IMG/VR virus record: IMGVR_UViG_3300024493_000235 | Span: 32,001-96,000 of that record | From: a virus | Taxonomy: Duplodnaviria > Caudoviricetes | Length of the DNA: 64,000 bases | Direction: 5' to 3' (one strand) | Part shown: in pieces, positions 31,137-59,827 of the stretch | Layout of the letters: every line of letters begins with the position of its first letter | Numbering within the stretch: the stretch's first letter is position 1 | Notes under the pieces: model-generated | Told to the model about the DNA's origin: nothing | What the model saw: only the letters and a program-made list of their open reading frames with translations | Database searches by the model: none | Program-made: the position numbers and the translations under genes

Positions 31137-31604
31137 ATGAAGCTATGGGTATTTTGGGGCGATATCCCAAAATCGTTTGAACGGGAAGATGGGCACAGTA
31201 TTTGGGAGTACCCTGAACTTAAAGAGTATGAGCCTGAGAAAGGCAAACGGCCAGACCATCCTGATAACATCATTGAGCGCGTGAAAGACATGGGCAAAAA
31301 GATAATAAGGCTCAATGTCGAAAACGGATTTCAAAACGCTTATCTTACAACGTATTCAGAACTTGTCTTAGCACAAATACGGTTTCTATCTCTTAATGCG
31401 TATGTGCAGCCAAAAGAAGCAGGAGACCAAGAGTTTCCATACTATGATCAAATTGTTTTTATCATTCCGGATAAAGACGGTATTGATTATAATGTGTGCG
31501 CCATGACAGAGTTCTGCACGCTTGAAGGCTGGCCGGATAAATCTGCCACAAAGGTTGTTGGTATCGAACAGGATATCGCAACCTTGCAAAAAGAACTAGC
31601 ATAA
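31137..31604 (+). CDS. Truncated ABC-ATPase C-terminal (DUF3696-like) family protein
   Basis: MKLWVFWG, EYPE...PDHP, TTYSELV, LEGWP. Confidence 0.65.
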   Translation: MKLWVFWGDIPKSFEREDGHSIWEYPELKEYEPEKGKRPDHPDNIIERVKDMGKKIIRLNVENGFQNAYLTTYSELVLAQIRFLSLNAYVQPKEAGDQEFPYYDQIVFIIPDKDGIDYNVCAMTEFCTLEGWPDKSATKVVGIEQDIATLQKELA

Positions 31605-31707
31605 CGTATATTAAGGGGCTCAAAAAGCCTCTTAATTTTATTTATTTTTTTAACAGTCAAAATTAAATATACTTATATATAATAGCTATAGCTAGGAGGC
31701 GTAGAAG

Positions 31708-32040
31708 ATGGTTATAACTGACATTATTTTTGAGCAGAGGGATGAATATTTTAATACCGACCCCGAAGGACTTGAAGAGCGTAAAAATAACGCTGCCGAA
31801 ACATTTATCGATGAGTACCTTGGTGTACTAAACGATATTGTCTATGGAATGTACAATGAAATAATCACGCAGGTTAAAAATTATATGCACAGAATGTCGA
31901 TATACGGATATAAACCGAGTCGATTTCGTAACATGTATTTTTCAAACAAAAGCAAGGATCCGAAGTTAGCAAACGATGACACCGTAAATAACACCGTCAT
32001 TAAAACCCTGCGAAGAATTCACAGGGTTATTTTTTGTTTG
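31708..32040 (+). pseudogene. 3'-truncated gene with no stop before its terminator
   Basis: Promoter 31674 and AGGAGG RBS; frame runs through hairpin 32004-32027 and T tract into the next promoter. Confidence 0.45.
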
Positions 32041-32073
32041 AGTATATATAATATCAACATGAAGGAGAATGTA

Positions 32074-32502
32074 ATGATATACACATCGTATTTCGCTATT
32101 TCAAAAAGTTGTCCGTTTCCGATATCTATTACGGCAACACAACCGACGGGATTTTCGTATCCAAGCCTATCAATGCTTGCTGTACCGAAAGATCTTTCTG
32201 ATGAATATAAAACTCGTCTTATAAAAGATGAGAAATATATTGAAAGATACAATGAAATGCTTAAAACACTCAATGTATCTGATGTACTTGAAGCTATTGA
32301 AGGATTAAAAAGACAACGTTACTATTATGGTAGCGATTGTACATTGATTTGCTGGGAGAAACCTGGGATATTTTGTCATCGTAATCTCGTCGCAGAATGG
32401 CTTAAACGTGAAGGACATCTTGTGGCAGAATTTGATGTAAATTCCTATGTTCCTAAGAAACAAGAAGGTCCGACATCTGTATACAAGCCGGGTAAAAAAT
32501 GA
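32074..32502 (+). CDS. DUF488-like protein
   Basis: Own promoter (32043) and AAGGAG RBS; MIYTSYFA...LICWEKPGIFCHRNLVAEWL. Confidence 0.75.
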   Translation: MIYTSYFAISKSCPFPISITATQPTGFSYPSLSMLAVPKDLSDEYKTRLIKDEKYIERYNEMLKTLNVSDVLEAIEGLKRQRYYYGSDCTLICWEKPGIFCHRNLVAEWLKREGHLVAEFDVNSYVPKKQEGPTSVYKPGKK

Positions 32503-32513
32503 AGGAGAATTAT

Positions 32514-33029
32514 ATGGACGAAGAAAATGCCGAGGTTATCACTACAGATAAACCACCTGAAAAAGAGGAAGAAGACGTTACATGTCATGCCATAGACAAA
32601 CCGCCTGAGAAAGAACCTGAAGTCGAAAAGACTGAAATGGACTTCGAAGATATTGCAAAGAATGTGCTAGGTCCCATTATGCAAAAAGTGGACGAAATGG
32701 CCTTCGATTGCATTTCTTCTTATAAAGGAGATAGCGATACACCAACACACCATCCTTTCTATGTGAAAGACGGAGTCCTTAAGAAGTTAAACGAAGTAAT
32801 AACTTACTTAGAAGACAGAGAAAGTTATTACAGAAACGCCAGCCTTATAGCATTTGCCTTGAAAAAGGATGGTGATAAACCTGCAAGGAAATACAAAGGG
32901 ATGCTCTCAGTAGCTAAAGCTATATGGGGTCTTATCGTAGCAAGGCAAGAACAAATACAAGCCGAAATTGACAGTGCACAAAAAGATCAAAATTATGATG
33001 AAATTGCACGCAAACTCGGCTTTGATTAA
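32514..33029 (+). CDS. Hypothetical protein with N-terminal DKPPEKE repeat
   Basis: AAGGAG RBS before ATG 32514. Confidence 0.7.
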   Translation: MDEENAEVITTDKPPEKEEEDVTCHAIDKPPEKEPEVEKTEMDFEDIAKNVLGPIMQKVDEMAFDCISSYKGDSDTPTHHPFYVKDGVLKKLNEVITYLEDRESYYRNASLIAFALKKDGDKPARKYKGMLSVAKAIWGLIVARQEQIQAEIDSAQKDQNYDEIARKLGFD

Positions 33030-33040
33030 AAGGAATTTTT

Positions 33041-33670
33041 ATGACACAGACAGATATGTATAATTATCTTCTTTCGCCTCCACATCCATGGAAGAAAGAA
33101 GAACTTGTTGTCCTGCAAAAGATGCATTTGGATGCAAGGCTTTCTATATCGTATAACCTTGTACGTTTAGGATTTGAACCGGCTGCTGAGAAAGGATTTG
33201 TAGAACACATACTTTCTAATGGAACGTGCAATGATATACATCTAAATTTTGACATCGGATATATTCAAGTCTTTAACGAAAGTTTAGACGAAAGGGTGTT
33301 TCAAGGAAGGGCACATTTGCATAATATTGCAACAAACGGCCGTGGATTCGGCTATAGCTACAGTGCTGACAAATGGGATCTTCGTGACGAACAAGAACTT
33401 GACAGACAGTATATCAATAATGCTTTAAATAAAATCGTGAACTCGTTTGATATCATCATCAAAGGTAAAACCGAATTTGACTTACAGTTAAAATTCGTTG
33501 ATTATAATTACCCTAAACCTCGTGGAATAGAAATAATCAACGAGAATGCGCTTAAAGAATACAGAGAAAAAAGTGCATCACGACTGTTTATTCATAAGAA
33601 CAAGCGCCTTGATATCGATTACTGCCGGTATACGGTTAAGGTTCACGACCGTACGATTCCTGTATCCTAG
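33041..33670 (+). CDS. Hypothetical protein
   Basis: 209-aa ORF, AAGGA RBS. Confidence 0.7.
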   Translation: MTQTDMYNYLLSPPHPWKKEELVVLQKMHLDARLSISYNLVRLGFEPAAEKGFVEHILSNGTCNDIHLNFDIGYIQVFNESLDERVFQGRAHLHNIATNGRGFGYSYSADKWDLRDEQELDRQYINNALNKIVNSFDIIIKGKTEFDLQLKFVDYNYPKPRGIEIINENALKEYREKSASRLFIHKNKRLDIDYCRYTVKVHDRTIPVS

Positions 33671-33678
33671 GACAGCAT

Positions 33679-34023
33679 ATGACAGAAAAAGATACACTTA
33701 AAATGATCCAAGATCAAACTGCTGTCGATGATTGGAGACAAATGCAAACTGACCTTGTCAATTTGTTAAATAGAACAAGGGATGCCGAGGGGCTGATACA
33801 TGTTTATCTTACAAATCTTGTACAATTTCTTACACAAGCGACTGCACAGACAATAAAAATAAACACAGCCCATGAATCAAGGGTGATATCGGAAGAAGAA
33901 TTCTTAAGACAAATAGAAGATCTTACTCCCGAAATTCACCATAAACTTTCAAAGAAAGAAATCGTCATTCAATTATTGTTTGATGCTCTTTCTATGGACG
34001 GAGGAGTTCCACATGCCCAATAA
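33679..34023 (+). CDS. Hypothetical protein
   Basis: 114-aa ORF, AGGA RBS. Confidence 0.65.
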   Translation: MTEKDTLKMIQDQTAVDDWRQMQTDLVNLLNRTRDAEGLIHVYLTNLVQFLTQATAQTIKINTAHESRVISEEEFLRQIEDLTPEIHHKLSKKEIVIQLLFDALSMDGGVPHAQ

Positions 34024-34567
34024 CGATGATAAAACAAAAGAATTGCGTGAATTGACAATTCACGCAAAATTTACAGCAACAGTCAACATTTGCAGAATTG
34101 ACGATCTCAAAGCTACAAACGTGCTTATAAAAGTTTTGGAAGACCAAAACGCAGTTTTTCATTTTCTAAAGATTAATCCTGTAATTCATGCAGGCGATTC
34201 GCACAAGATAAGACATTTACGTGATCATGATGTGATTCATTGCAAAACTCCAGATTTTACACAATCAGATTTACATCTACTTATACTGCATTGTGCTGGC
34301 CTTCCGCATCATATCGAGGGGTATAATTGCAATCCTGAAAAGGCTATTGTGACTAAAATTCAACACCTTATTCATGAACGTACAAAGGAGTTGCTGCGAA
34401 AGTGCATATTTTATCCTCCTGTAGATCAACCGGGAAAAATTGAACTTCCTTACGATGATCAAGTCGGTCAAATCGCTACAGTGGCACGTGCAGACATTAC
34501 TCCAATTGATACGCTAACAGTTTACATCGACAGCATAAAGCCTGTTAGAACGTTTTTCAAAATATAA
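34013..34567 (+). CDS. Hypothetical protein
   Basis: GGAGGAG RBS before ATG 34013; terminator about 34572-34595. Confidence 0.65.
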   Translation: MPNNDDKTKELRELTIHAKFTATVNICRIDDLKATNVLIKVLEDQNAVFHFLKINPVIHAGDSHKIRHLRDHDVIHCKTPDFTQSDLHLLILHCAGLPHHIEGYNCNPEKAIVTKIQHLIHERTKELLRKCIFYPPVDQPGKIELPYDDQVGQIATVARADITPIDTLTVYIDSIKPVRTFFKI

Positions 34568-34855
34568 CAACAAGGGAGCTATTCTTAGCTCCCTTTATTT
34601 TTCTTTAAGGAATGTGGTTACATAAATAGATAAAGAAGTAATCGTTTTAAAAGACTTGAGATTGTGCACACAAATGTCTCTTGTTTTATCGACAGTGTCA
34701 TTCGGACAATACCAAGAAAAATTTTATTATCCTGAAACATGTCGAGAGCATAACGTATCCTAATGATACGCACAAACTGTTTTAAAACAGCGATTTAACT
34801 CCTTCTGGCTTTTGCCAGAAGGTTATTTTCTTTTTGGAGTATATATAATAAAAAC

Positions 34856-36160
34856 ATGGAAACACAAACAACGGAAATCATATCCAATTTTAATTTCAAT
34901 GCGATGTTTATAGCTGTCATTTCGATGTTTGCTATAACACTATTGTCAACGGTTTACAAGAAAGGTGTCGCCGGTTTATTTAAACTTATCTTTAAACACC
35001 TTACAACCCGTGTCGAAGTATCTTCAAGTCATTGGGCATACTTTCAATTAATCAGGCTTTTAAATATCAATGATGAAAAAGAAAAAAGAATTCGTACCTT
35101 TAGACTTAATAATGGCAGATGGGGAGATGAAAAGTTCATATCCTTAGGGATAGGAAAAGGCACACACTTACTTAAAATTTACTGTAAATTGTGTATAATA
35201 AACCTAGAAGAAAAAGACACACAATGGAATGAAGAAAAATTCATTCTAAATATTGTACTTTTTGGCCGTAATTTAGAATTTATTAAGCTCTTATTGACAA
35301 GGCTCTACGAGATTAAAAACAAACCGGATATCAACAACAACGAGATTGTGATTTATACAATCGAAGATAACACTTGGAAAGAGACAATCGTACTTGAAAA
35401 ACGTGCAGAAGATACAATCTTTATAGATTATCTTGCAAAACAAAAAGTGTTTAACTTTGTCGATAACTTCTATAATCGTAAAGATTGGTACGTTGAAAAA
35501 GGTATCCCATATCAAGCTGGTATATTATTATACGGGCCTCCAGGAACAGGAAAGACTTCGTTTGTTAAAGTGATAGCATCTAAGTTTAACAAAAATATTT
35601 ATTATCTTAAAGCAAGCGAACTTTCAAAACTTCAAACAGCTTTAGTAACACTCCCAAAAGATTGTATCCTTCTAATCGAAGATATCGATTCGAACGATCT
35701 AGTGCTTGATCGAAGTAAACGAGAGCAAAATAACGAAAAGCTCAATATCGAAACGAATGCTGACGGTAAAGCAAAAATCGCCGTCGAGAAAATAAACCTC
35801 TCGGATATTCTTAACTTCATGGATGGAGTTCTTTCTATTCCAGGAAGATTTTTAATTGCTACAACAAACAAAAAGGAGAAAATTGATCCTGCATTGCTTA
35901 GACCGGGAAGGATTGATATGGCTATTGAAATCGGTTATATCCATTACGGGAATTTCCTTGAGTTTATAGTAAAATATTACAACGATTATCTTACAAGCAT
36001 TCCTGATTATGGCCAATTCTTTGCACAAAAATCGGCGTTAAAGAAACTGAAAAGTGATACTCTTACTATTTCAGAATTGCAAAATGACTTCTTAGTTAAC
36101 GAACTATCGTTCGATGCAATGTTTGAGAAATATACTGAGTATTCAAAGGAGCTACCATGA
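34856..36160 (+). CDS. BCS1-like membrane-anchored AAA+ ATPase
   Basis: N-terminal TM helix; WY.EKGIPY..GILLYGPPGTGKTS, LLIEDID, LSDILNFMDG, TTN, DPALLRPGRID. Confidence 0.85.
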   Translation: METQTTEIISNFNFNAMFIAVISMFAITLLSTVYKKGVAGLFKLIFKHLTTRVEVSSSHWAYFQLIRLLNINDEKEKRIRTFRLNNGRWGDEKFISLGIGKGTHLLKIYCKLCIINLEEKDTQWNEEKFILNIVLFGRNLEFIKLLLTRLYEIKNKPDINNNEIVIYTIEDNTWKETIVLEKRAEDTIFIDYLAKQKVFNFVDNFYNRKDWYVEKGIPYQAGILLYGPPGTGKTSFVKVIASKFNKNIYYLKASELSKLQTALVTLPKDCILLIEDIDSNDLVLDRSKREQNNEKLNIETNADGKAKIAVEKINLSDILNFMDGVLSIPGRFLIATTNKKEKIDPALLRPGRIDMAIEIGYIHYGNFLEFIVKYYNDYLTSIPDYGQFFAQKSALKKLKSDTLTISELQNDFLVNELSFDAMFEKYTEYSKELP

Positions 36161-36588
36161 AACTATATGTATTTTGGGGTGAAACACCAAGTTCTTTTCC
36201 ACCCTTAGTGTATCGAAATTCCATTGATTATCCTGAGATGTTTCACGACTATGATCCAAAGTATAGTCGTCCAAGACATCCTAAGACAATTGAAAAATAT
36301 ATCCGAGAATATGTCGAACGCGAATATGCTAAACCGGCTGATAATGATATATTTTTCATACGTACTTACTCAGAACTCGTTATAGATATTATTCGAGTTC
36401 TTGCGAAGAAAGCTTTACATGGAAATGACGGTATTCAATTTCCACATTACGACGAAATCACTTTCGTTGTCCCTAACGAAGAACGTGATGGCTATGAAGA
36501 AATCGGTTTGGATGAACATTCGATGATTGATTACTGGCCTCCTGGATTTTGCGATACCCACGAAAAAATTCGCATGCAACTTATCTAG
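36157..36588 (+). CDS. Truncated ABC-ATPase C-terminal (DUF3696-like) family protein
   Basis: MKLYVFWG, DYPE...PRHP, RTYSELVIDIIR, IDYWPPGFCD. Confidence 0.7.
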   Translation: MKLYVFWGETPSSFPPLVYRNSIDYPEMFHDYDPKYSRPRHPKTIEKYIREYVEREYAKPADNDIFFIRTYSELVIDIIRVLAKKALHGNDGIQFPHYDEITFVVPNEERDGYEEIGLDEHSMIDYWPPGFCDTHEKIRMQLI

Positions 36589-36627: not shown

Positions 36628-36933
36628 GTGATTCAAAGGAGGTATTATGAACCTATATGTATTCTGGAGCAATATCCCAGAATAATTTCCGAAATCATTA
36701 TTGATATCATAAGGTTGCTTGCCAGGTATTCTCTTTTGGATACAACCGATATCGAATTTCCCTTATATACGGAAATTACTTTTATCATTCCTGATAACGA
36801 TAATAACGATTATCTTGCATACCTTATGGATAAAAATTCGGCGATTGATAGTTGGCCTGCAGGATTTTGCGATGTATCAGGAAAAAATTCAAGCCAAACT
36901 ATTGGAATGTACATCATAACAAAAACAATTTAA
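36628..36933 (+). pseudogene. N-terminally eroded member of the DUF3696-like family
   Basis: Retains SEIIIDIIR, FP.Y.EITFIIPD and IDSWPAGFCD but lacks the VFWG/YPE N-terminus. Confidence 0.55.
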
Positions 36934-36945
36934 AGGAGGCTATTT

Positions 36946-37410
36946 ATGCACATGTATGTGTTTTGGGGCGATATTCCATCGTCATTCATTCGCAAAGGCG
37001 ATGCTTTTAAGTACGGTTATCCTGAAATAAAGCGTAATGGAGGAAGTTATGGAGGCTTTCCGATTCATCCTAATGATATACAGAAGAGTATACAAGATCA
37101 TATAAGAAACTTATATGAGAATGGTATCAGGACTGTATATGTCACAACGTATTCGGAACTCGTCATCGATACCATAAGACTTCTTTCCTTAAAAGCATTA
37201 TTGAAATATGATGACGTGAGATTTCCATTACACGACCAAATAACCTTTATCATTCCAGACGAAAATGGTGTAGGGTTTTACGAAAAATATATAGACAGGC
37301 GTTCAATAATGGACAGTTGGCCTATAGGATTCTGCGATCAGCATTCCAAAGTAATGGATTTACTTTTGCAATATTCCGGTGACATAAAGGATGAAAATTC
37401 GAATGCCTGA
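36946..37410 (+). CDS. Truncated ABC-ATPase C-terminal (DUF3696-like) family protein
   Basis: MYVFWG, GYPE...PIHP, TTYSELVIDTIR, MDSWPIGFCD. Confidence 0.7.
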   Translation: MHMYVFWGDIPSSFIRKGDAFKYGYPEIKRNGGSYGGFPIHPNDIQKSIQDHIRNLYENGIRTVYVTTYSELVIDTIRLLSLKALLKYDDVRFPLHDQITFIIPDENGVGFYEKYIDRRSIMDSWPIGFCDQHSKVMDLLLQYSGDIKDENSNA

Positions 37411-37672: not shown

Positions 37673-37696
37673 ATCGGGGCCAATTTCGGCCCCGAT
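37673..37696 (+). terminator. Intrinsic terminator, GGCC-core family
   Basis: ATCGGGGCC-AATTTC-GGCCCCGAT then T tract. Confidence 0.8.
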
Positions 37697-37834: not shown

Positions 37835-38599
37835 ATGAAAAAGATTTGGGTAATCGCCTGTCTTATTCTAATCGCATTTGCAATCGTAAGTTGCAAAGCG
37901 AAGAACAAAGTCGTCGATGTGAAAAGCCAGGTAGAGGAAAGATTGCGTGCATATGTTGCACACGACCTTGAAACAGGGTCCGGAAAGGTTACAAAAGTTA
38001 CATTGAGTGATGCCCCCGAAGGCTCCGACCTTACATGGACTGCGTTTGCAACGTATACGCCAGATGCGGGTGATAATTATGATATTGAGTTATTGGTACA
38101 ACATCTTACCGCTACGAACTCTATCACATGGTGGTATGCAGCTAATTATCCGTATGGCGATAAAACAGTACCTCTTACAGGTGATATCGTTTTTGAAGAA
38201 CCGCTGAAATACCGAATGGAATACGATGTCCCATATGAAGAAGAGATGCCGGTACAATCTGTTTCAAATTCAAAAAATAAACAATCAGCAAACAATGAAT
38301 CGGCAGTTATTCTTGGCAAAGTGGAACAGAAAGGAAGTAAGTTTACTCTTTTTGATACAAACAAAAGAGAAATAACGCACATTGACATGCCAAATAGAGA
38401 GCTAATGGGCTGGGGCAATGATTTCTTCCTTACAAAATCAAAGGACAATACATTCAGATCGTATAATCTCAGAGGCACAGAAATCGGCTCAATAACCGTC
38501 AGTAATGTGGAGTCTGTAACCTTTGATAACGAAGGGTTTATTTTGAAACAAAAAGGATCGTCGCCGAGAAAATACAAAAAGAACGGACAATCAAGATAA
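37835..38599 (+). CDS. Lipoprotein
   Basis: MKK, hydrophobic stretch, then AIVSC lipobox; GAGGAG RBS. Confidence 0.75.
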   Translation: MKKIWVIACLILIAFAIVSCKAKNKVVDVKSQVEERLRAYVAHDLETGSGKVTKVTLSDAPEGSDLTWTAFATYTPDAGDNYDIELLVQHLTATNSITWWYAANYPYGDKTVPLTGDIVFEEPLKYRMEYDVPYEEEMPVQSVSNSKNKQSANNESAVILGKVEQKGSKFTLFDTNKREITHIDMPNRELMGWGNDFFLTKSKDNTFRSYNLRGTEIGSITVSNVESVTFDNEGFILKQKGSSPRKYKKNGQSR

Positions 38600-39126: not shown

Positions 39127-40428
39127 ATGACAAAAGAAGATAAATATATAGTGAAAATGCTTGACTTACTTGAAAGAGATTCTCATTTAGATACACTTAC
39201 AAGGCCCATATTCTCCATCGTTCGAAATGATCCTAAACGTACAACATTTTCAAATAAGGGAATGCACTATACTTACTTAGCTACAATCCTTGATGAAAAC
39301 GGAAAAGTAATTATCGTAATAGACTATGACGGAGATCATTTCGGCAAAGATTACGCTATCGATATGAAAAAAGATATTCGTATCTCTTGCAGACCGAAAG
39401 GATCGAAGTTACTTGTACTCTTATCTAATATGCCGGAATTTCACGTTCAACAATGGATACTTAAATATTTACAGCAAGATGAAAAAACATTCTTCGAAGA
39501 TCGCTTTAAAACGTGGATATCAAGAGGATACTTTTGGTATAAAGATGTAAAAGATTTTAACACTCCCGATATTTTATTAAAAGATTGGAGCAACTTAAAA
39601 CATTTTACACCAAAAACAAGCGACACAAAGTCGTATTCAAATGTTATAAACGGAATTTCAAACATCGGAATGACCCTCATAAAATACTTTCATCCGTCGA
39701 TATATCGTTGTCGTATGAAAGACAGACAAAGCCCTGAAAATATATGGTACCACCAAGATAAAGATGGAAACTTTGATTTGTTGTTACAGATGTTTAATGA
39801 ACACAGAATGTATTTAGATTGGTTCATGTGTTACAGAGTGATCCAAATGTTTGAGACTACAGACGTTGCGCCAAGAATTCCGATATTAACTCCTTCACGA
39901 GCTAAACTATTGCTATATAAATATGCAGGAGAATTTAACGAAATCTTCAATCCATTTTCAGGATTCTCAAGCGTATTATTAGCCGCAACTTCTCTTGGAA
40001 AAAAATACCTTGGCTACGATATCAATCGTACAGTTGTGCACGAATCTCAATGCATGATAGAATGGTTTGAAAAACATAAAATTCCCATTGATGCACACGT
40101 TGACAGAAAAGACGCATTTATTGATAACGACAGCAATAACCCGTTTCAAAATACATCGAATACATACGGTTGTCTATTCTCGTGTCCTCCTAATGGAGAT
40201 ACAGAAATATATTATGACAACATGATACAAGAAGAATTCTCATCATCGTATTCCTGTGAACAATGGGTACAATGGTGTCTTGATACATACAAATGTAAAA
40301 GATACATCTTTGTTGTAGACTCTAGGTGTAATAAGTTTCAAGGATATGTACAAGAAATTCTTACAACTAAAAGAGTTTCAAGATATCCTTTTAGCACACA
40401 TGAGAAAGTGTTGGTGTTTGACAGGTAA
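39127..40428 (+). CDS. Endonuclease-like/DNA methyltransferase-like fusion, degenerate paralog
   Basis: IVIDYDGDHF; FNPFSGFSS (motif I), YLGYDIN, LFSCPPN (altered motif IV). Confidence 0.65.
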   Translation: MTKEDKYIVKMLDLLERDSHLDTLTRPIFSIVRNDPKRTTFSNKGMHYTYLATILDENGKVIIVIDYDGDHFGKDYAIDMKKDIRISCRPKGSKLLVLLSNMPEFHVQQWILKYLQQDEKTFFEDRFKTWISRGYFWYKDVKDFNTPDILLKDWSNLKHFTPKTSDTKSYSNVINGISNIGMTLIKYFHPSIYRCRMKDRQSPENIWYHQDKDGNFDLLLQMFNEHRMYLDWFMCYRVIQMFETTDVAPRIPILTPSRAKLLLYKYAGEFNEIFNPFSGFSSVLLAATSLGKKYLGYDINRTVVHESQCMIEWFEKHKIPIDAHVDRKDAFIDNDSNNPFQNTSNTYGCLFSCPPNGDTEIYYDNMIQEEFSSSYSCEQWVQWCLDTYKCKRYIFVVDSRCNKFQGYVQEILTTKRVSRYPFSTHEKVLVFDR

Positions 40429-40441
40429 TGGAGGAAAACAC

Positions 40442-41503
40442 ATGATAGCAGACATAATTGTAGGTATGCAATACGGTTCGGAAGGGAAAGGTGCTTTTGT
40501 AAATCACGCATTACAAATGGAAACCGGTTATAATATGTCGATGAGAGTCCAGTCAACACAATCGGGACATACTATATATTTTAAAAATCAAAAATATATA
40601 ATGAGGTCCATTCCTTGTGCATGGGTAAACCCGAATGTCGAATTATTGCTAGGTCCCGGCGCTTTTACAGAAAGGGATATTCTTTTGGATGAAATAAAAA
40701 GTATAAATGGATCTCTTGGAGGAGATGTGCGCGATCGACTTTTTATAGACAAAAGAGTATTTGAAGTTGAGGACCGTGATAAGCGAAAAGAAGCAGATCA
40801 AAAACTTGATAGCAGAATTGGAAGCACAATTCACGGATCAGGTTCCGCACTAAACGAAAAAATATGGAGAAAACGCACAAGAGGTAATAAAAATTTTATC
40901 GAATGGTGCCTTGCAAATAAGATAAATGTCGTTGACACAATAGACCATATACAAAAAGGAACTCTTTTAATAGAAGGATGCCAGGGAGCTATGCTTTCTA
41001 TTCATACATCACCTTTTTATCCGTATGTAACATCCAGAGAAGCCACAGCTTCAGGAATCTTATCAGAATGTGGAATATCCCCACGTGATGTAAGAAATAT
41101 CTTTGGTGTCTTTCGTACATTGCCAATCAGAGTAGGAGGGAACTCAGGACCTACAGGATCAGTTGAAATTACTTGGGAAGAAGTTTCTAGGAGAGCAGGA
41201 TATAATGTAACACCAGAAAAGACTTCCGTTACTGGCAGAATTAGGCGTATCTTCGAGTTCTCATATGATGATATGGCTCACGCTATTAGAGTAAATAAAC
41301 CCACGCACTTAATTATGACCTTTGCAAATTACATCGCTCCTTGTTTTGGAATTGATTCATGGGACAAAATTGACATCAATTCCAAAAGAAACATAGATAC
41401 ATATACATCTGTAGTAAACAAGCTTTGCAAAAATATTACACCTAACAATACTTATGGTATTGTATCAATTAACACAAATCCAATTAATTGGATAGATATC
41501 TAA
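40442..41503 (+). CDS. purZ: Adenylosuccinate synthetase-family protein of the PurZ type
   Basis: GMQYGSEGKG (Ser at PurA Asp13), SGHT, IGST, IEGCQG, FYPYVTSR, RTLPIRVGGNSGP, TFANY; start ATG 40442 after GGAGG. Confidence 0.7.
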   Translation: MIADIIVGMQYGSEGKGAFVNHALQMETGYNMSMRVQSTQSGHTIYFKNQKYIMRSIPCAWVNPNVELLLGPGAFTERDILLDEIKSINGSLGGDVRDRLFIDKRVFEVEDRDKRKEADQKLDSRIGSTIHGSGSALNEKIWRKRTRGNKNFIEWCLANKINVVDTIDHIQKGTLLIEGCQGAMLSIHTSPFYPYVTSREATASGILSECGISPRDVRNIFGVFRTLPIRVGGNSGPTGSVEITWEEVSRRAGYNVTPEKTSVTGRIRRIFEFSYDDMAHAIRVNKPTHLIMTFANYIAPCFGIDSWDKIDINSKRNIDTYTSVVNKLCKNITPNNTYGIVSINTNPINWIDI

Positions 41504-41653: not shown

Positions 41654-43705
41654 TTGAAAGATATGGAGCTTACATGCACTAAATGTAACAAAACATTTTC
41701 ATTAACACGTAACGCATTTTTGAAACGGCAATACAGAGGTGTCGATACATCTCTATGTCAATGGTGTAGTAAAGCACACACAGAATTCAAAGATCATATA
41801 TATGTGCCAAAGTCAGAAAATCATATTTGCCAAAAATGCGGTAAATCCTTTACACTTACAAGAAGTGCATTTAATAAACGGAAATGCAAAAAACAAGATA
41901 CTACATTATGCAATCCGTGCAGAACAACTCAAACTACTTCTGATCGTCACGGATATGCATCTCCGCTTGCAAATCCTAATATATTACAGAAAACAAAAGA
42001 TACAATGCAAGAAAAATACGGTACAACATACGCACTACAGATTAAAGACGTTGAGGGTGTAGGATATCAAAAAGCTGTCACAACATTTCAAGCTAATTAT
42101 CACACTAATGCAGCAAATCCGTTAATGCATGCAGAAACACTTGAAAAAATAAAAGCAACAAATGTGGATAGATATGGAGATGCTAACCCATTGAATAATC
42201 CTGAAGTCAGAGCAAAGCAACAACAAACAATGATTAAACTATATGGAGGAAAACCCCAAGCAGAATCGGAAGAATGTAGAAAAAGAGCACTAGAAGTATT
42301 TCGAACAAGATACGGTCAAAATTGTTATTTGCAGTCTGCTCATTTCTCTGAGAAGATGGTACTAAAATTTGGAACAAGATACCCACAACTTACAACTCAT
42401 AGTAGTAGCAAAGAAGAAAGACATGTGTTCAGCAAAATTGAAGAACTCTTTTATCACGGTTTACTTAAAAATTCCAAATATACATTTATTTACAATGATC
42501 GAGAAAAATATAAAAACAGTGCTTTATTCACTTTCTCTTATGGTGATACCGATCATCCGTGGGACGGAATAGTGCTCAACGAAGATTATAGTATTGCACT
42601 CGTAATCGATTATGATGGTGAATATTATCATGGCGATTATCCTGACTATGATGGCGTACATTCTTCAGAAGAAAGGGATTCTATCAGAATGAAATGTGTT
42701 CCTAAAGATGCTAAGATACTTATCATCTATAAAGATACTCAGGATTACATTAAAGATATCGTTGACATACTTGGTATGGATTACGACGAATGGCTTAATA
42801 AGTTATACAACTATTGTTGTGGTATCGATTTTCCATTCTATCACAATTATTATTACGAAAAACAACTTTTACACAGTTGGAAAGCGCTTGCACTATTTAC
42901 TCCTGAGAAATGTGATAAAAAATCGTGGACAAAGCTCACCCAAGGACGCTCTACACTAGGTGGAAAACTTATTAATTATTTTCACCCGTCTATTTATAAA
43001 TGTCACACCAAAGGAAAAATATCACCATATGATGCATGGTATCATACCGATGAAAATGGTAATCGTGATTTACTTCGTAAATGTATTCGTAATAGAAGTA
43101 TTTATGCAAATTCGTATAAACCATATCGGATACTGCAAGGTTTTAACATTTCTGATATTGCACGAAAAATAACTACATTTTCAGCATCCAGAGCAAAAAT
43201 GTTACTCATAAAATATGCGCAAGAATTTGACCAAATCTTTGATCCTTTTATGGGATTTTCCGGTCGTCTTCTTGGAACTGTGGCTCTTAAAAAAGCATAC
43301 ATAGGAAACGACATAAATAAAACCATTATACAAGAAGCAAAAAATCTTATTAGATGGTTTGAAAGGCATAACATCGAAAATAGAGTTATTTTGACAAACA
43401 ATGATATACAATCGATCCCAAAAGAATATTCGATGCATAACGACGAATGCTTGTTTACGTGTCCTCCATACAAAGATACCGAAATTTGGTACGACGAAGT
43501 ATCAAAGCGAGAGATTAGATCTAATATGACAGCGGAGCAATGGGTTGAATTTTGTCTTGACACATTTAACTGTAAAAGGTATATATTCGTCGTCGATTCA
43601 CGATGTAACAAGTACAACAGCAATGTACAAGAAATATTTGTTAATAGAAGATCTGCAAAATACCATGTAAATCTTCATGAAAAAGTACTTGTTTTTGATA
43701 AATAA
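41654..43705 (+). CDS. Zn-ribbon + YG-repeat + Vsr/DUF559-like endonuclease + amino-methyltransferase fusion
   Basis: CxxC pairs, YGxxN repeats, WD...LVIDYDGEYYHG, FDPFMGFSGRLLG, YIGNDIN, LFTCPPY. Confidence 0.75.
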   Translation: MKDMELTCTKCNKTFSLTRNAFLKRQYRGVDTSLCQWCSKAHTEFKDHIYVPKSENHICQKCGKSFTLTRSAFNKRKCKKQDTTLCNPCRTTQTTSDRHGYASPLANPNILQKTKDTMQEKYGTTYALQIKDVEGVGYQKAVTTFQANYHTNAANPLMHAETLEKIKATNVDRYGDANPLNNPEVRAKQQQTMIKLYGGKPQAESEECRKRALEVFRTRYGQNCYLQSAHFSEKMVLKFGTRYPQLTTHSSSKEERHVFSKIEELFYHGLLKNSKYTFIYNDREKYKNSALFTFSYGDTDHPWDGIVLNEDYSIALVIDYDGEYYHGDYPDYDGVHSSEERDSIRMKCVPKDAKILIIYKDTQDYIKDIVDILGMDYDEWLNKLYNYCCGIDFPFYHNYYYEKQLLHSWKALALFTPEKCDKKSWTKLTQGRSTLGGKLINYFHPSIYKCHTKGKISPYDAWYHTDENGNRDLLRKCIRNRSIYANSYKPYRILQGFNISDIARKITTFSASRAKMLLIKYAQEFDQIFDPFMGFSGRLLGTVALKKAYIGNDINKTIIQEAKNLIRWFERHNIENRVILTNNDIQSIPKEYSMHNDECLFTCPPYKDTEIWYDEVSKREIRSNMTAEQWVEFCLDTFNCKRYIFVVDSRCNKYNSNVQEIFVNRRSAKYHVNLHEKVLVFDK

Positions 43706-54209: not shown

Positions 54210-54716
54210 ATGAATATAGCGTCATATAAATGTCTTACCATAGATCAGATAGAAGATGTCGTTAAAGTACTTCATCGAATTGTCCCGACTCTTAAAGTGT
54301 CATATGATCTTGGTAAAGCGGCTGTCCGTGTAGAATTTCCGGACAAATCATATTTTTGGATGATGGGTACGCATTTCGTTCCTGCAAGTGTGCATGACGA
54401 AGTTGATCTCGTTATCCATATCGATATGCGTGATAGAAACGAAGTAGATTTTGTACACACACTTTTAGCATCAGACAGATTCTTTCAATCGCTTATCAAA
54501 AACCATACTGTGTGGAGTTTTATGGAACCGGGCTTTATAGAAGAATGTGATAACGAATATTACTGTTTCACTTTCAGAGTCCATACTCTTCACTTTGAAG
54601 TCTGTTACGACGGTCCACACAATTGGAAGGACGAAATTAATCATGATTCTAAAGACTTCGATGAAGACATCAAAAAGGTATTTGAAAATGTAAAACAGCA
54701 CATGATGTCTTTGTGA
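54210..54716 (+). CDS. Hypothetical protein
   Basis: Promoter 54182, GGAGG RBS, terminator 54721-54746. Confidence 0.7.
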   Translation: MNIASYKCLTIDQIEDVVKVLHRIVPTLKVSYDLGKAAVRVEFPDKSYFWMMGTHFVPASVHDEVDLVIHIDMRDRNEVDFVHTLLASDRFFQSLIKNHTVWSFMEPGFIEECDNEYYCFTFRVHTLHFEVCYDGPHNWKDEINHDSKDFDEDIKKVFENVKQHMMSL

Positions 54717-54809
54717 TATAACATACGCCGCAAATGCGGCGTATGTTATTTTTTTGTTGCAATAATTTATTTAATTATATATAATAAAAATACACAGAGG
54801 AGATTTAAA

Positions 54810-55262
54810 ATGATTTATACGTCTTATTTCGCTATAGCGCAACATGTACCGTTTCCAATATCGATCGCTTTAAGGGAGCCTGGAAACTACCCTAAAATAC
54901 CGTTTTTAGCCCCAACAAGTGAGCTATTATATGCGTACAAGCATAAAAACGTTAGTGAGACCCAATATATCGAGATATACAACGAAATGCTTCACAAAAT
55001 AAAGCCCGAAAGGATTATCTCTGAAATAAAGAAATTAAAGAAGAATTTTTACTATACTGAAGAAGATGTCACGTTGTGTTGTTGGGAAAAATCTGGTTAT
55101 TTTTGTCACAGACATTTAGTATCACAGTATTTATCTGAAGCTGGATATATGGTGGCAGAATGGGCGAAATCACCATCTTTATATATTGCTAACGCTCCAA
55201 AACATGGAAAACTTGCACCGGGATCTTCTGTTTCAGAATCAAATCCTGACGGATGGATTTAA
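54810..55262 (+). CDS. DUF488-like protein
   Basis: MIYTSYFA...LAPTSELL...LCCWEKSGYFCHRHLV. Confidence 0.8.
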   Translation: MIYTSYFAIAQHVPFPISIALREPGNYPKIPFLAPTSELLYAYKHKNVSETQYIEIYNEMLHKIKPERIISEIKKLKKNFYYTEEDVTLCCWEKSGYFCHRHLVSQYLSEAGYMVAEWAKSPSLYIANAPKHGKLAPGSSVSESNPDGWI

Positions 55263-55289
55263 AAATATTTTGAGTATATATCATCTATA

Positions 55290-55366
55290 TGAGAAAATAT
55301 AGAGATTAGATTATTAAATCTTGAGTCGTTGACTCGTGTTAGTAACAATATCCTGTATAAGTATCA
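55290..55366 (+). ncRNA. Structured 5' leader hairpin, copy 4 of 5
   Basis: TATAG/CTGTA and TTATTAA/TTAGTAA stems (G.U pairs); apical GAGTC-GTT-GACTC. Confidence 0.65.
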
Positions 55367-55377
55367 AAGGTTGTTAT

Positions 55378-55824
55378 ATGACTACAGCAATATATTTTAG
55401 AGACTTCACGATGACACTTCCTGAGAAAGACCGGAGAATAACCGCATTCTTAAGAATGATAAATTATCTCGCGGAGAAGAATGTCCACGCTTCAATACGG
55501 CACGAATCGGTTGAAGAAATGGAACTCACTGTATTCCGTACATCAAAAGAAAACGGTTACAGAGTTCTGTACTACGCGCAAGGCGATATTAAAATCGTCA
55601 TAGCCGATACATTTGGCAGTATCAACCAGCCCGCGATGTATACTAACATGGTGCAGGGCATTGTCGGCAAAGACGCTAAGGAAAATCTCGTCCACATCGA
55701 AGAGATCTATACATGCGACAGGAATCTCATTGGAAAGGTTATCAATGCGGACAGCGAAGAGAAAAAAGCTGCCGCAAAAGAAAATCTCAAGAAGTTTATT
55801 TACACAAACGATCCGATTCAGTAA
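55378..55824 (+). CDS. Hypothetical protein
   Basis: ATG 55378 after the leader; terminator about 55829-55856. Confidence 0.7.
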   Translation: MTTAIYFRDFTMTLPEKDRRITAFLRMINYLAEKNVHASIRHESVEEMELTVFRTSKENGYRVLYYAQGDIKIVIADTFGSINQPAMYTNMVQGIVGKDAKENLVHIEEIYTCDRNLIGKVINADSEEKKAAAKENLKKFIYTNDPIQ

Positions 55825-55866
55825 ACGTATATGGAGACCAAAACGGGTCTCCATATATTATTTTTT

Positions 55867-56499
55867 TTACACTAAAGGATACTTAGCATTTTCTGGTCTA
55901 TCTGTTAATGCGAGTTTTCTTAAAGCAGCATTCCTGTCTACACCACCAGCTTCATCTGCTTGTTTTTCGGACCATCGAGTTTTGTAGTACCAATAGTGCC
56001 TATCGTATATACACCAAGCTACATGGAACCACCTATCCCACATGTTGCAAAACACCGAACTGTATACACCAACAGTTGGCAGGTATAGCCACCCTAATGT
56101 TTCTGATTGTCCTATTTTATGTCCTTTTTCATGTCGTATGGTATATAAATCATGGGCTGTATTTAAACAGATATATTTTCCCATTGAAAACCCTGAAACA
56201 TTACCAAGTATTTTATCATTTTTATGGGAACAATAATCTGCTACATAAATTTTAAAGCCGGTTAATTCTTCCATTCCGTATAGGAATTTTAATTCTCTCT
56301 GACTTAGCACAATAAGTCTTTCTTTCCATAAACGACTCATTCCATAACCCAATGCGTTCTGAGGTAATTGCCACACCCATTCAAATAAAAACTTACCAAC
56401 CTTTTTGGCGTAAAGTTTTATATAATCCAGTGCAGTTTTAAAAAATGGCAATATTTTGGTAGATAAAAATATACCGATTTTTGTAAATAGATTTTTCAT
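55867..56499 (-). CDS. HExxH zincin-like membrane-associated protein
   Basis: WQLPQN.LG, RHEKGH, QS..LGWLYLP.VG; AACA-N6-TA at 56513-56524. Confidence 0.65.
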   Translation of the reverse strand: MKNLFTKIGIFLSTKILPFFKTALDYIKLYAKKVGKFLFEWVWQLPQNALGYGMSRLWKERLIVLSQRELKFLYGMEELTGFKIYVADYCSHKNDKILGNVSGFSMGKYICLNTAHDLYTIRHEKGHKIGQSETLGWLYLPTVGVYSSVFCNMWDRWFHVAWCIYDRHYWYYKTRWSEKQADEAGGVDRNAALRKLALTDRPENAKYPLV

Positions 56500-56575
56500 A
56501 TATACCTCCATTTACAAAAATGTTTTTCTACGATCCTATCGTATCTACATAAATCTTAAATATATATCATATTAA

Positions 56576-56651
56576 TGAGAGATAAGATATTTAGATTATA
56601 ATGTCTTGGATCGTTGATCCGCGCATGTAACAAGTATATCTTATGATATCA
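56576..56651 (+). ncRNA. Structured 5' leader hairpin, copy 5 of 5
   Basis: ATAAGATAT/ATATCTTAT stem; apical GGATC-GTT-GATCC. Confidence 0.65.
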
Positions 56652-56663
56652 AAGGTGATAATT

Positions 56664-57338
56664 ATGAAAATTAATAGCATGATGTTTCAAAAGAAACGTA
56701 TACCTCTTACATGTTTAAAAAGCATTGTTGACATGCATCAGAAAGCGTGGTCTTTCGATTTGGGATCTCCATTCCTAAATTGGATTGCGGTTCTTGTAAA
56801 AGTGTGCGATAAAAAGAACCGAAAGCACAATGTATGTGTTTTAACGTTTGATATGAGCGAATTAGATTGTAAAACACTTAAACTCAGAGTTGACGAACTT
56901 ATTGGTTTTGCTCTAGTGTACAATGCGAATAAGCCAAAACAGTACCACCCGATTTTATGTATGATATACTGGTTTTGTTATATCATACTCCTATTTTCAA
57001 AACATGGACGTGGGTGTCTACGATGGAGAAAAATGTTCGCGTCACATCAAGAAGCTGCCTTAACTCTAGGAAAACAAGCATTATTCGGTTTGACAAAAGG
57101 AAAAACTTCGGAAGGCCTCGTTATTGTTACAGACCCAAAATTTCAAAAACAAGGTGTGTACACAGGTATGATGAATGCGATATTCAAAAATATGAAAGGA
57201 TATTTTATATTTCACACATCGACAGATTGTACATACCAAGCACATAATCGTTTTGAATGTAAAAAGATTTTTGAGGTTCCAATGTTTTTCCCTGAAAAAG
57301 AAATAACGTTTATAATGTACAAGAAGCTCGAAGTCTAA
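56664..57338 (+). CDS. GNAT-family acetyltransferase
   Basis: IVTDPKFQKQGVYTGMM (acetyl-CoA-binding motif A). Confidence 0.65.
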   Translation: MKINSMMFQKKRIPLTCLKSIVDMHQKAWSFDLGSPFLNWIAVLVKVCDKKNRKHNVCVLTFDMSELDCKTLKLRVDELIGFALVYNANKPKQYHPILCMIYWFCYIILLFSKHGRGCLRWRKMFASHQEAALTLGKQALFGLTKGKTSEGLVIVTDPKFQKQGVYTGMMNAIFKNMKGYFIFHTSTDCTYQAHNRFECKKIFEVPMFFPEKEITFIMYKKLEV

Positions 57339-57350
57339 AGGAGGCGCAGC

Positions 57351-57521
57351 ATGGAAAAGATAAGATGTAAGAAATGCGGCAGAGCGCTGAAGTCCTGTGA
57401 AAAGAATTTATGTCCGTATCACCGAAACTTACTTGATAGAAAAATCAAGGTGTTCACAATAGTATGCGGTGTCGCTGTTATCATCTTTATAATCATCGGT
57501 GCTATTTCAAAGATGATGTAA
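57351..57521 (+). CDS. Small Zn-ribbon + TM protein (56 aa, not in ORF track)
   Basis: AGGAGG RBS; CKKCG...CPYH then a hydrophobic helix. Confidence 0.6.
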   Translation: MEKIRCKKCGRALKSCEKNLCPYHRNLLDRKIKVFTIVCGVAVIIFIIIGAISKMM

Positions 57522-57537
57522 TGCATAGGAGCGAAGT

Positions 57538-57795
57538 ATGAAAAAGAAAGTTCAGTATTACACCATTCAAGAAACGTGCAAAATAATGCATATAAGTTTA
57601 AGTACTGCAACACGTGGATTACGAGCATTAAAAGATAAACCTTGGACTGAGGCTGTTCGCTTAAGAAATCGTCGTGTACTAATACCTCGGAAAGTTGTTG
57701 ACAATCTTTCAGACATACATCCGTACATTCCAATGAAGTATAAAAAGAAAAAGGCAGAAATAAAGCCGATTAAAAGAAAAAGTACAAAACGATAA
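57538..57795 (+). CDS. Excisionase-like helix-turn-helix protein
   Basis: YYTIQETCKIMHISLSTATR...AVRL..RRVLIPR; terminator 57798-57824. Confidence 0.7.
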   Translation: MKKKVQYYTIQETCKIMHISLSTATRGLRALKDKPWTEAVRLRNRRVLIPRKVVDNLSDIHPYIPMKYKKKKAEIKPIKRKSTKR

Positions 57796-57884
57796 ATCAT
57801 TGGGGAGCTATTAGCTCCCCAATGTTATTTTTTTTAATATACATTTTACCTATATATAATTAACTTAAGATAAGGAGAATAAAA

Positions 57885-58289
57885 ATGATAAAAAACATAT
57901 ATGTCAATGATGATGACGACAGTGAGTTTGTCGGCGATGTATTTGTTGAATTACAACAACACAAGATACGTAATTTTAATGCTTTTCGTAAAAAGAAAAA
58001 TCATGATCCACACCTTTATATTGAAACGGTATACGATCTTTCAAAACAACCGATTCCAGATAGAGATGATGTACGATCTGGTATTATGATACCAGACGAA
58101 ACATTTTTCATACGCGTTCCAAAAGAAGAGTTGGATAAAGGTTTAATATCAACTGTCATATTAGTAAAACTTTTCGAGCATTATATCGACAGTAAGATAC
58201 TTAAAAAGCTTTTACCAAATGAAGAGAATCTGCGAGACATGATTAATACCGCCTTAAGGACAAGCAAAATGAGGTGGATTTATACATGA
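57885..58289 (+). CDS. Hypothetical protein
   Basis: Promoter 57851, AAGGAG RBS. Confidence 0.7.
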   Translation: MIKNIYVNDDDDSEFVGDVFVELQQHKIRNFNAFRKKKNHDPHLYIETVYDLSKQPIPDRDDVRSGIMIPDETFFIRVPKEELDKGLISTVILVKLFEHYIDSKILKKLLPNEENLRDMINTALRTSKMRWIYT

Positions 58290-58316
58290 TTCATACATAA
58301 CTCTGGAGGGCACTAT

Positions 58317-59075
58317 ATGGCTAAAACGAAAAAATGCACTTGTTGCAAAAAAATAAAGCCCTTATCAGAATTTCACAAACAAAAAGCCTATAAGGACGGA
58401 TATCGTAGCCAATGTAAAAAATGTTTACGTAAAAAAGATAAACATCGATACAATAACGATCCGGAGGTTATTAAAAAGAGAAAAGAAAAAGAAGCGCAAA
58501 AGAAGTTATTTCAGCAGCATTTGAAAAAACGATGCGCATGTTGTAAAAAAATAAAACTTTTATCTGCGTTCAGTAAAAATTCGGCAACAAAAGACGGATA
58601 TCAATATTTGTGTAAAAAATGCACAAGTGAAAAAGATAAACGTCGATACAATAACGATCCAGAAGTTATTGCAAAAAGGAAAGAAAAGGAGGTACGAAAA
58701 GAGTTATTTCAGTATTCGAAAAAATACTGTACCTATTGTAAACAGATAAAACCTTTATCTGCATTTCGCAAAGATTCAAGAACAAAAGATGGATACCGAT
58801 ATTGGTGTAAAGAATGCGTAAATACATATCAGCAAACACCAAAATGTAGAGAACGACGACGTAATGGTGCAAAAATATATTACAAAACCCACAAAAATAA
58901 TTGTAGCACATTACGCAGACTGGCAAAGGCATACTTTAAAGAATTAGGACTGGATCCTAAAAATGTAAGCGAAGAATTTCTGCTATTAAAAGCAGAGCAT
59001 ATAAGATTACGACGACAACTCAAATCAAAGGAGAAGAAAAATGGCAGTTCCAAAACCGGAGTTAAGCGTGGATGA
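58317..59075 (+). CDS. Protein with three tandem C4 zinc-finger repeats
   Basis: 3x K.C..CK.IK.LS.F.K.....DGY...CK.C. Confidence 0.75.
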   Translation: MAKTKKCTCCKKIKPLSEFHKQKAYKDGYRSQCKKCLRKKDKHRYNNDPEVIKKRKEKEAQKKLFQQHLKKRCACCKKIKLLSAFSKNSATKDGYQYLCKKCTSEKDKRRYNNDPEVIAKRKEKEVRKELFQYSKKYCTYCKQIKPLSAFRKDSRTKDGYRYWCKECVNTYQQTPKCRERRRNGAKIYYKTHKNNCSTLRRLAKAYFKELGLDPKNVSEEFLLLKAEHIRLRRQLKSKEKKNGSSKTGVKRG

Positions 59076-59280
59076 TGTTTATGAGACTATCGCAGAACAG
59101 ATACAAAAACTAAGAGCGAAAACGGTGAAAACAAGCGACATCGCAACAGCGAATGCTATTGCAAACCAGATCGGAAAAGGCTTAAAAGCTGCAGCTCTTC
59201 AGATCAAATATACCGAGTTAAAGAATACTGCAGCAGGAAAAAATATGTCGGTACCTATTGTCGAACCAAGGAAAAAGTAA
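59041..59280 (+). CDS. Small helical phage protein
   Basis: 79-aa ORF, AAGGAG RBS; bidirectional terminator 59285-59310. Confidence 0.65.
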   Translation: MAVPKPELSVDDVYETIAEQIQKLRAKTVKTSDIATANAIANQIGKGLKAAALQIKYTELKNTAAGKNMSVPIVEPRKK

Positions 59281-59317
59281 ATTTATCCAGGAGCCTTAAG
59301 GCTCCTGGATTTGTGTT

Positions 59318-59827
59318 TTATTCTGTCCCTATTTTTTCTTTGAGTTTCTGCGAATAATCTGATATTTCATCTATTATGTTAGACACTTTATCGCAGAACC
59401 CTTTGGGCCGATTGGTCAACGTTGTATACTGATCCATATCGACATTGTCGTAAAAGTCTGGATCCAAAGCGTCAGGTACAACAAATCGTATTTCTTTGGG
59501 GAAAGGAAATACGACGCTATAGCAATCCTTTAAGAAAGCTTTTAATGATACAAGACGAATAAGTTCAATTACGACATCAGAATATGTATAAATACACGCA
59601 GGAAATGCGTGATGTACATATAACTTTTCTCCGAAATCAAGTAATTTCTTTTCAATCTCGTCGGGATGAATTGGAAGTCCTCCGTTAACTTCGATGTTAG
59701 ATTCCCTTAACGTTTGAGTAACTTCAGGCCAAAATAATTCCGACTCAAAGAAATGTACACCCTCCCATTTTTTCAAATCAAAATTCTTTGGAACTGAACC
59801 CCAAAATACATATAATTTTTTATCCAT
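59318..59827 (-). CDS. Truncated ABC-ATPase C-terminal (DUF3696-like) family protein
   Basis: KLYVFWG, FWPE...PIHP, YTYSDVVIELIR, RPKGFCD; promoter 59846-59855 (-). Confidence 0.7.
   Translation of the reverse strand: MDKKLYVFWGSVPKNFDLKKWEGVHFFESELFWPEVTQTLRESNIEVNGGLPIHPDEIEKKLLDFGEKLYVHHAFPACIYTYSDVVIELIRLVSLKAFLKDCYSVVFPFPKEIRFVVPDALDPDFYDNVDMDQYTTLTNRPKGFCDKVSNIIDEISDYSQKLKEKIGTE

Follow-up and report, generated by a model that had tools for sequence, protein, structure and literature searches.

What are the short, repeated proteins encoded by a Caudoviricetes virus, and why would the virus keep several of them? The question is raised by a 64,000-nucleotide stretch of DNA (hereafter, the window), which corresponds to bases 32001-96000 of the 268,442-bp IMG/VR virus record IMGVR_UViG_3300024493_000235 (CheckV completeness, 91%). 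A preliminary description of the window, made from its sequence, had drawn attention to five paralogous genes and had read their products as fragments of ATP-binding cassette (ABC) ATPases that could act as decoys against host defence ATPases. We found that the paralogs are homologous to a defence-type clade of ABC ATPases with a DUF3696 tail, lack the catalytic motifs of these enzymes and, judged by profile comparison, appear to form a branch of a family carried by large phages. Their action as decoys is a reading that we put forward tentatively.

The paralogous genes

Five paralogs, four of them intact (143-169 amino acids) and one broken, had been described, and all of their open reading frames were located where they had been reported:

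31137-31604, plus strand: P0001, 155 amino acids; a single-gene unit in which the WPxGFCD motif has decayed to WPDKSATK
36157-36588, plus strand: P0002, 143 amino acids
Within 36628-36933, plus strand: eroded paralog; the profile matches it in two places, which differ in frame and are separated by a stop
36946-37410, plus strand: P0003, 154 amino acids
59318-59827, minus strand: P0004, 169 amino acids; the sole copy on the minus strand, which has a ribosome-binding site of its own

When a profile of the five paralogs was searched against the whole genome (268,442 bp), exactly these copies were recovered (E values, 3e-71 to 7.5e-41) and no sixth copy was detected. The pairwise identity among the paralogs was 29-42%, and at this level the intact copies have kept their motifs, together with Shine-Dalgarno sites and promoters or terminators. 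When identity was examined by segment, it was 69% in the N-terminal strand, 52% in the H-loop strand and the helix that follows, and 17% in the DUF3696 helix, which was the most variable part. The order of motifs that had been ascribed to the family (KLYVFWG, (Y/W)PE, PxHP, TYSE..IR, FP, I.F..P and WPxGFCD) was present, except that GFCD was gone from P0001. The last motif reads WPxGFCD in P0002, P0003 and the eroded copy and RPKGFCD in P0004.

The N-terminal remnant of the eroded copy is 12 codons long, MNLYVFWSNIPE, and is followed by TAA (36647-36685); the copy also has a Shine-Dalgarno site. Further, its C-terminal two-thirds sits in a different frame from that of the remnant. The remnant and the change of frame show that about 55 internal codons were lost and that a frameshift occurred.

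Relationship to ATPases with a DUF3696 tail

An exhaustive HMMER search of 1.84 billion representative proteins with the paralog profile recovered only nine outside proteins, eight of which were small. The remaining protein, P0013, is a full-length AAA_15/AAA_21/DUF3696 ATPase of 661 amino acids, and the profile aligned to its residues 547-649. The motifs that had been quoted as typical of the full-length enzymes (EQPELHLHP, ETHSE..R and WPKGFFD) were all found in P0013, the closest full-length match. In this protein, EQPELHLHP, ETHSEYIIDKLRLR and WPKGFFD correspond to (Y/W)PE...PxHP, TYSELVIDxIR and WPxGFCD of the paralogs, respectively. The gene following P0013 encodes NsnC (4e-16), indicating that P0013 is part of a Menshen-like ATPase-effector pair. 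Note that on the contigs carrying P0013 (L007 and L008; NCBI source name, 'Spirochaetia bacterium FACS1894106'), the NsnB-NsnC pair is followed by a gene for a PbeA-like DEAD/ResIII helicase (PADLOC, 3e-60), and no DUF262/NsnA gene was found upstream of the pair.

The PADLOC model of NsnB (PDLC03878) matched P0002 at 1.3e-5 (profile positions 271-342 of 345) and P0003 at 2.4e-5, and such matches were confined to the C-terminal 90 or so positions of the profile (approximately 254-343 of 345). The same model matched the small relative P0015 at 1.3e-21 and P0013 at 2.5e-74. Among the PADLOC models, the phage proteins and their relatives matched NsnB, HEC-03B and PDC-M55A only, and those of PARIS AriA, Septu PtuA and Gabija GajA were never matched. 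Thus, of the defence ATPases to which the paralogs had been likened, the clade with a DUF3696 tail (Menshen NsnB, HEC-03B and PDC-M55A) was recovered, but PARIS, Septu and Gabija were not. A Pfam scan of the five window proteins gave no match, and for DUF3696 (PF12476) none was detected even at an E value of 10; two small relatives scored above the 22-bit threshold of Pfam DUF3696 (P0015, 44.3 bits; P0007, 25.5 bits).

In a profile-profile comparison, eight small phage-type proteins, with no ATPase among them, were aligned with 22 full-length ATPases using hhalign. The probability was 96.9% and the E value was 1.5e-10 over 83 columns, which extend from the H-loop strand through the WPxGFxD motif to the end of the DUF3696 helix. 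The first 18 residues alone aligned best on LTIFCGAN, the Walker A strand of P0013 (E value, 0.7; not significant), and sub-profiles of the Walker B segment gave no significant hhalign alignment. Taken with the predicted fold described below, the PADLOC and hhalign results bear out the earlier claim that the paralogs are related to the Walker B, H-loop and DUF3696 end of AAA_15/AAA_21 ABC ATPases.

NsnB of Menshen, as well as HEC-03B and PDC-M55A, shares T.SE, I(D)..R, the I.F strand and WPxGF(C/F)D with the paralogs. Unlike NsnB, the paralogs are about one-quarter of its size and have approximately 10 residues inserted between P-E and H-P. Further, the Menshen operon contains NsnA (DUF262) and NsnC, whereas the neighbours of the paralogs are unrelated to these, and the paralogs are multi-copy and phage-encoded.

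Other searches added little. Word-indexed homolog searches recovered almost nothing beyond the result of the exhaustive HMMER search, IMG/VR pattern scans with alignment A1 and with P0009 found no relatives, and megablast of 10 kb against a phage collection gave no match. A match to uS8 in a profile search of PDB sequences (E value, 1.2) was judged to be due to chance.

Predicted fold and loss of catalytic motifs

The AlphaFold2 model of P0003 had a predicted local distance difference test score (pLDDT) of 92.7 and a predicted template modelling score of 0.85. That of P0001 had a pLDDT of 89.6, and its input alignment was free of ATPase sequences. The two models run in the same way from a first strand through further strand(s), a long helix, a strand, a helix and a beta-hairpin to a long C-terminal helix. 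In a shape search of the ESM Atlas, residues 1-154 were placed on bacterial AAA_15/AAA_21/DUF3696 clusters with template modelling (TM) scores of 0.61-0.71 by query, and the superpositions comprised up to 136 aligned residues with a root-mean-square deviation of about 3 Å. The search also retrieved three clusters of viral proteins of 131-143 amino acids, and the Atlas's own model agrees. The top 50 PDB representatives were almost all ABC ATPases (Rad50, nucleotide-binding domains of transporters, UvrA, retron Eco8, JetC and GajA), with Z-scores of 5.4-7.0 that were modest for each match and uniform across matches. The best PDB matches in Foldseek were OLD, PtuA and retron Eco8/Eco7 (E values, 0.06-0.2). 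As had been expected from the motifs, the predicted fold is thus related to that of ABC ATPases.

The paralogs had been called half ABC ATPases. The C-terminal end is indeed present, but they are not just a C-terminal half, since residue 1 of the model paired in the structure alignments with chain residues at approximately 22-36, which form the strand leading into the P-loop. With residue 1 on the P-loop beta-strand, about 470 residues are missing between this strand and the Walker B strand. On the predicted models, the paralogs are an internally deleted ABC core with a DUF3696 tail.

The alignments confirmed that Walker A and the signature motif are lacking and that Tyr replaces the switch His. 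The Walker A motif GxxxxGK[ST] is absent from the paralogs, in which the first strand is followed by G-[DES]-x-P-x-[SN]-F and Lys-Ser/Thr is lacking; the corresponding sequence in P0013 is GANSSGKS. The first strand is separated from the Walker B strand by about 12 residues in the paralogs compared with about 490 in P0013, and the whole intervening region, comprising the Q-loop, the inserts and the signature motif (SGG, or GxG in NsnB), is missing from the paralogs. Only P-E is retained of Walker B, and the E-Q of EQPE is replaced with G, E, D or F followed by Y or W. Each of the four intact copies has Tyr at the position of the H-loop His, and relatives have G, Q or C there. With the catalytic residues and the helical and signature subdomain gone, the paralogs are predicted to be unable to bind or hydrolyse ATP.

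Related proteins in other phages

The sequence profiles suggest that the paralogs form a remote branch, with longer proteins, of phrog_12026. This family, which is carried by large and jumbo phages, is uncharacterised, and PHROG lists its function as unknown. The phrog_12026 profile matched P0003 at 2.3e-4 and P0002 at 4.9e-3, and gave no match for P0001, P0004 or P0005. Bridging relatives matched the same profile at 1e-14 (P0014), 2e-7 (P0012) and 2e-6 (P0009). Two proteins of Pseudomonas phage pf16, gp152 and gp153, matched it at 5.7e-37 and 3.3e-31, respectively, and are encoded by overlapping tandem paralogs with WP(V/Q)GFCD (KU873925.1; locus L014):

3926-4258: gp152
4252-4551: gp153

Homologs of phrog_12026 are present in phages of Pseudomonas, Bacillus, Vibrio and Ralstonia that have genomes of 166-344 kb. 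Like the paralogs, the phrog_12026 proteins are small, stand-alone phage proteins with a V.D.FRL helix, a beta-hairpin, WPxGFCD and a terminal helix. In contrast to the paralogs, they are 100-115 amino acids long and do not possess the KLYVFWG strand or (Y/W)PE...PxHP, which are the P-loop and Walker B strands. Further, the fold was matched in BFVD (8e-6) by small proteins, the majority of which come from large or jumbo phages such as phiRSL1, AR9, GAP32, PspYZU05 and CBB, and a feature search of the Atlas retrieved viral clusters of 50-187 members with scores of 0.94-0.95. The contigs of the relatives are phage-like, with small unannotated open reading frames. One of them carries a large gene for an RNA polymerase beta-subunit-like protein (Rpb2_6), together with genes for a dCMP deaminase and an SNF2 helicase, a combination that we take to indicate a jumbo phage.

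No full-length AAA_21 or DUF3696 ATPase was found in the phage genome; the control for this search was positive in 14 of 14 genomes. A search of the phage genome for a mimic of DUF262/NsnA likewise gave nothing convincing, and the best candidate, a sub-threshold score of 16.9 bits in a coiled-coil open reading frame, was rejected.

Expression signals and gene neighbourhood

The preliminary description had placed all copies in units with presumed early promoters, one of them with a leader hairpin. The following features were found around P0001 and around the operon that contains P0002, the eroded copy and P0003:

30963-31007: terminator-like hairpin upstream of the P0001 promoter motif
31037-31047, plus strand: promoter-like motif TATATATTATA before P0001, exact match
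31048-31136, plus strand: leader hairpin of the P0001 transcript, 89 nucleotides (-20.3 kcal/mol; z, -1.9)
31610-31636: terminator-like hairpin after P0001
34840-34850, plus strand: promoter-like motif TATATATAATA before the operon, second copy
34856-36160, plus strand: BCS1-like AAA+ ATPase (phrog_7485), which comes first in the operon and is not a member of the family

The motif TATATAT[A/T/C]ATA occurs at 27 sites in the window compared with 6.3 expected, a more than 4-fold excess that was equalled in none of 100 shuffles. The majority of the copies lie immediately upstream of plus-strand genes, and the motif is likely a phage-specific promoter element. Its sites include 31037, 31674, 34840, 37732, 39097, 41614, 47194, 52409 and 54776.

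The motif thus precedes P0001 and the operon, as had been described, but P0004 has only a degenerate version, together with a good ribosome-binding site. The leader hairpin that had been claimed for one copy was found before P0001. It has the same bulged-hairpin architecture, with an apical GAUCGUUGAUC-type stem, as the leader of the gene at 37835 (z, -3.0). No such hairpin was found at P0004 (fold z, +0.86).

The order of the operon is the AAA+ ATPase, P0002, the eroded copy and P0003, followed by a terminator at 37673-37696. The promoter motif ends 5 nucleotides before the ATG of the first gene, which suggests either that this gene is near-leaderless or that its true start lies downstream. 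The ATPase matched Pfam AAA (1.7e-18), BCS1_N weakly, phrog_7485 (2.9e-73) and PADLOC IetA (6e-13). Its stop codon overlaps the start of P0002 as ATGA, so that the two genes are translationally coupled.

No known anti-defence gene was recognised beside P0001-P0003, and most of the neighbouring genes have no assigned function. Immediately downstream of P0001, the gene at 31708-32502 (plus strand) encodes a DUF488 domain of the 'active N3' subclade (PF22751, 1.4e-6; phrog_2450, 1.2e-19). P0004 is flanked by two plus-strand genes. One of these (58317-59075) encodes three Cys-rich zinc-ribbon repeats, with matches to Stc1 (7.5e-7) and to endonuclease VII families, and it also matches phrog_5558, 'Lar-like restriction alleviation', at 2.5e-27. 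The other (59954-62029) encodes 691 amino acids in which DUF7487/homing-endonuclease-like repeats are fused to a DNA methyltransferase-like C-terminus; similar methyltransferase-like genes are present at 39127-40428 and 41654-43705. An adenylosuccinate synthetase-like gene (PF00709, 6e-38) is present at 40346-41503 on the plus strand. The major head protein gene (62083-63870, minus strand; phrog_20655, 1.9e-31) lies about 2.3 kb from P0004, which places P0004 at the edge of the structural module, outside the accessory block of the other copies.

A possible role as decoys

The reading that we favour, tentatively, is that the paralogs are dead mini-copies of an NsnB-type ATPase that act as anti-defence decoys; the binding, the inhibition and the target are what we infer. 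The present analysis shows that the paralogs are homologous to these ATPases and share their fold, that they have lost the catalytic motifs, that the family is distributed among phages, that the phage has no full-length partner ATPase and that the genes have expression signals of their own. A published domain analysis of Menshen, based on AlphaFold 3 predictions, models NsnB as a tetramer, with a stoichiometry of NsnB4-NsnC2. Within it, an ATP-type dimer is predicted to hold the N-terminal inactive-PIN (inPIN) domain of the NsnC toxin between its two DUF3696 tails; this polymorphic domain falls into 35 families (PMC12065111). Of the ATPase, the paralogs have kept the central beta-sheet and the C-terminal tail. 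The sheet comprises a P-loop strand that has lost its P-loop, a Walker B strand with P-E at its end and an H-loop strand in which Tyr replaces His, and the tail consists of the beta-hairpin, the WPxGF(C/F)D motif and the DUF3696 helix. In the proposed scheme, they would offer the DUF3696 tail plus the core sheet that bears it. With the tail and sheet kept, and with ATP binding and the canonical ATP-sandwich dimer lost, such proteins would be suited to compete for the docking site or to cap NsnB. They may capture NsnC-type effectors or cap NsnB oligomers, which would uncouple sensing from effector activation, and several diverged paralogs could cover different host variants. The low conservation of the DUF3696 helix (17%) would fit diversification against variable partners.

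Several points weigh against this proposal. The link to any defence protein is one that we infer. The Pfam DUF3696 model does not match the window's own proteins. The features shared with the ATPases (T.SE, the invariant Arg and WPxGFxD) could be conserved for folding alone, and the best-conserved part of the family is the N-terminal strand, which is no element of this tail and to which the decoy model assigns no role. GFCD is missing from P0001. Three copies are co-transcribed with a phage AAA+ ATPase, one of them translationally coupled to it, and could have a phage-internal job. Further, variability is common in C-terminal helices, so that the value of 17% argues weakly for an arms race. 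A complex prediction of P0013 with P0003, run without controls, gave an ipSAE of 0.00 in both runs and weighs neither way on binding.

The paralogs may instead be an exapted scaffold, derived from a fragment of an ATPase core acquired long ago and unrelated to defence, such as a host-takeover or regulatory protein that binds a host ABC/SMC-type ATPase or the AAA+ ATPase of its own operon. The coupling of P0002 to the BCS1-like ATPase, the presence of the eroded copy and P0003 on the same transcript, the 69% identity of an N-terminal strand that is no DUF3696 element, and the age and wide occurrence of the family in large phages of unrelated hosts are all consistent with such a role. However, no AAA gene of this kind is linked to P0001, to P0004 or to the relatives found on other contigs, and the sole detectable non-phage homologs are defence-type ATPases; we consider exaptation rather unlikely. 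It is improbable that the paralogs are broad poison subunits for other OLD/ABC systems (PARIS AriA, Septu PtuA, Gabija GajA and retron PtuA/OLD) rather than for the DUF3696 clade specifically. Although the core fold is common to the OLD, PtuA, retron Eco8 and GajA chains (Z, 5.0-6.7; Foldseek E values, 0.06-0.2), the sequence profiles matched NsnB, HEC-03B and PDC-M55A alone and never AriA, PtuA or GajA, and WPxGFxD, the motif conserved in the tail, is DUF3696-specific.

In NsnC effectors, RNase domains of the BECR/RelE type are frequent and are docked on DUF3696 tails (PMC12065111), and the paralogs could by analogy be adaptors or antidotes for toxin-like proteins of the phage itself, with the DUF3696 tail holding an effector as in NsnB. 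An inPIN-like adaptor was not identified in the phage, however, and the chances of this explanation appear slight. Finally, the loci could be non-functional debris of a duplicated, decaying defence ATPase gene borne by the phage, as would be suggested by the clearly broken copy and by the loss of GFCD from P0001. We regard this as very improbable, given that four intact copies at 29-42% identity have the same motifs, Shine-Dalgarno sites and promoters or terminators, that the models are confidently folded (pLDDT, 92.7 and 89.6) and that the truncated architecture is conserved across many unrelated phages.

Comparison with known anti-defence proteins

Virus-encoded, Cas-derived anti-CRISPRs are anti-defence proteins derived from subunits of the system that they block. 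The decoy proposal for the paralogs follows the same concept, in which a truncated or inactive defence subunit encoded by a virus competes for partner surfaces, with the difference that inhibition by the paralogs is conjectural. The kind is therefore already known, as virus-encoded inactive copies of a defence subunit, and the paralogs would be a further variant. Gad1 is not known to be homologous to GajA. This phage protein is directed against an ABC-ATPase-based complex, GajAB of Gabija (PDB 8u7i), as is proposed for the paralogs; the structural match of the paralog model to 8u7i was to the GajA chain, not to Gad1. In the literature searched, no phage counter-measure to Menshen was described, nor was an inhibitor of the subunit-copy type for Menshen or for any ABC-ATPase defence system.

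It is possible, though we hold it to be doubtful, that phrog_12026 and its longer branch, a widespread family that numbers hundreds of small proteins and is carried for the most part by large or jumbo phages, constitute the first anti-Menshen class that works by subunit mimicry, sequestering NsnC or capping NsnB tetramers. Menshen and its two-gene relatives are widespread, and their mechanism has so far only been predicted. NsnABC of Solibacillus silvestris is reported to protect against T2, T4, T6 and Fado (PMC12065111). If the proposal is true, decoy competition, beyond the recognition of RNA targets alone, would help to explain the polymorphism of the NsnC inPIN domain (35 families), and mimicry of this kind would also account for the retention of several diverged paralogs by the phage. 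A dead, cut-down transducer subunit would be a reagent for testing NsnB-NsnC coupling and a candidate first inhibitor of Menshen. Further, phrog_12026 gains an evolutionary origin and a testable hypothesis, and since the family is present in culturable phages (pf16 and other large or jumbo phages), experiments on it would be independent of the uncultured phage in which the paralogs were found.

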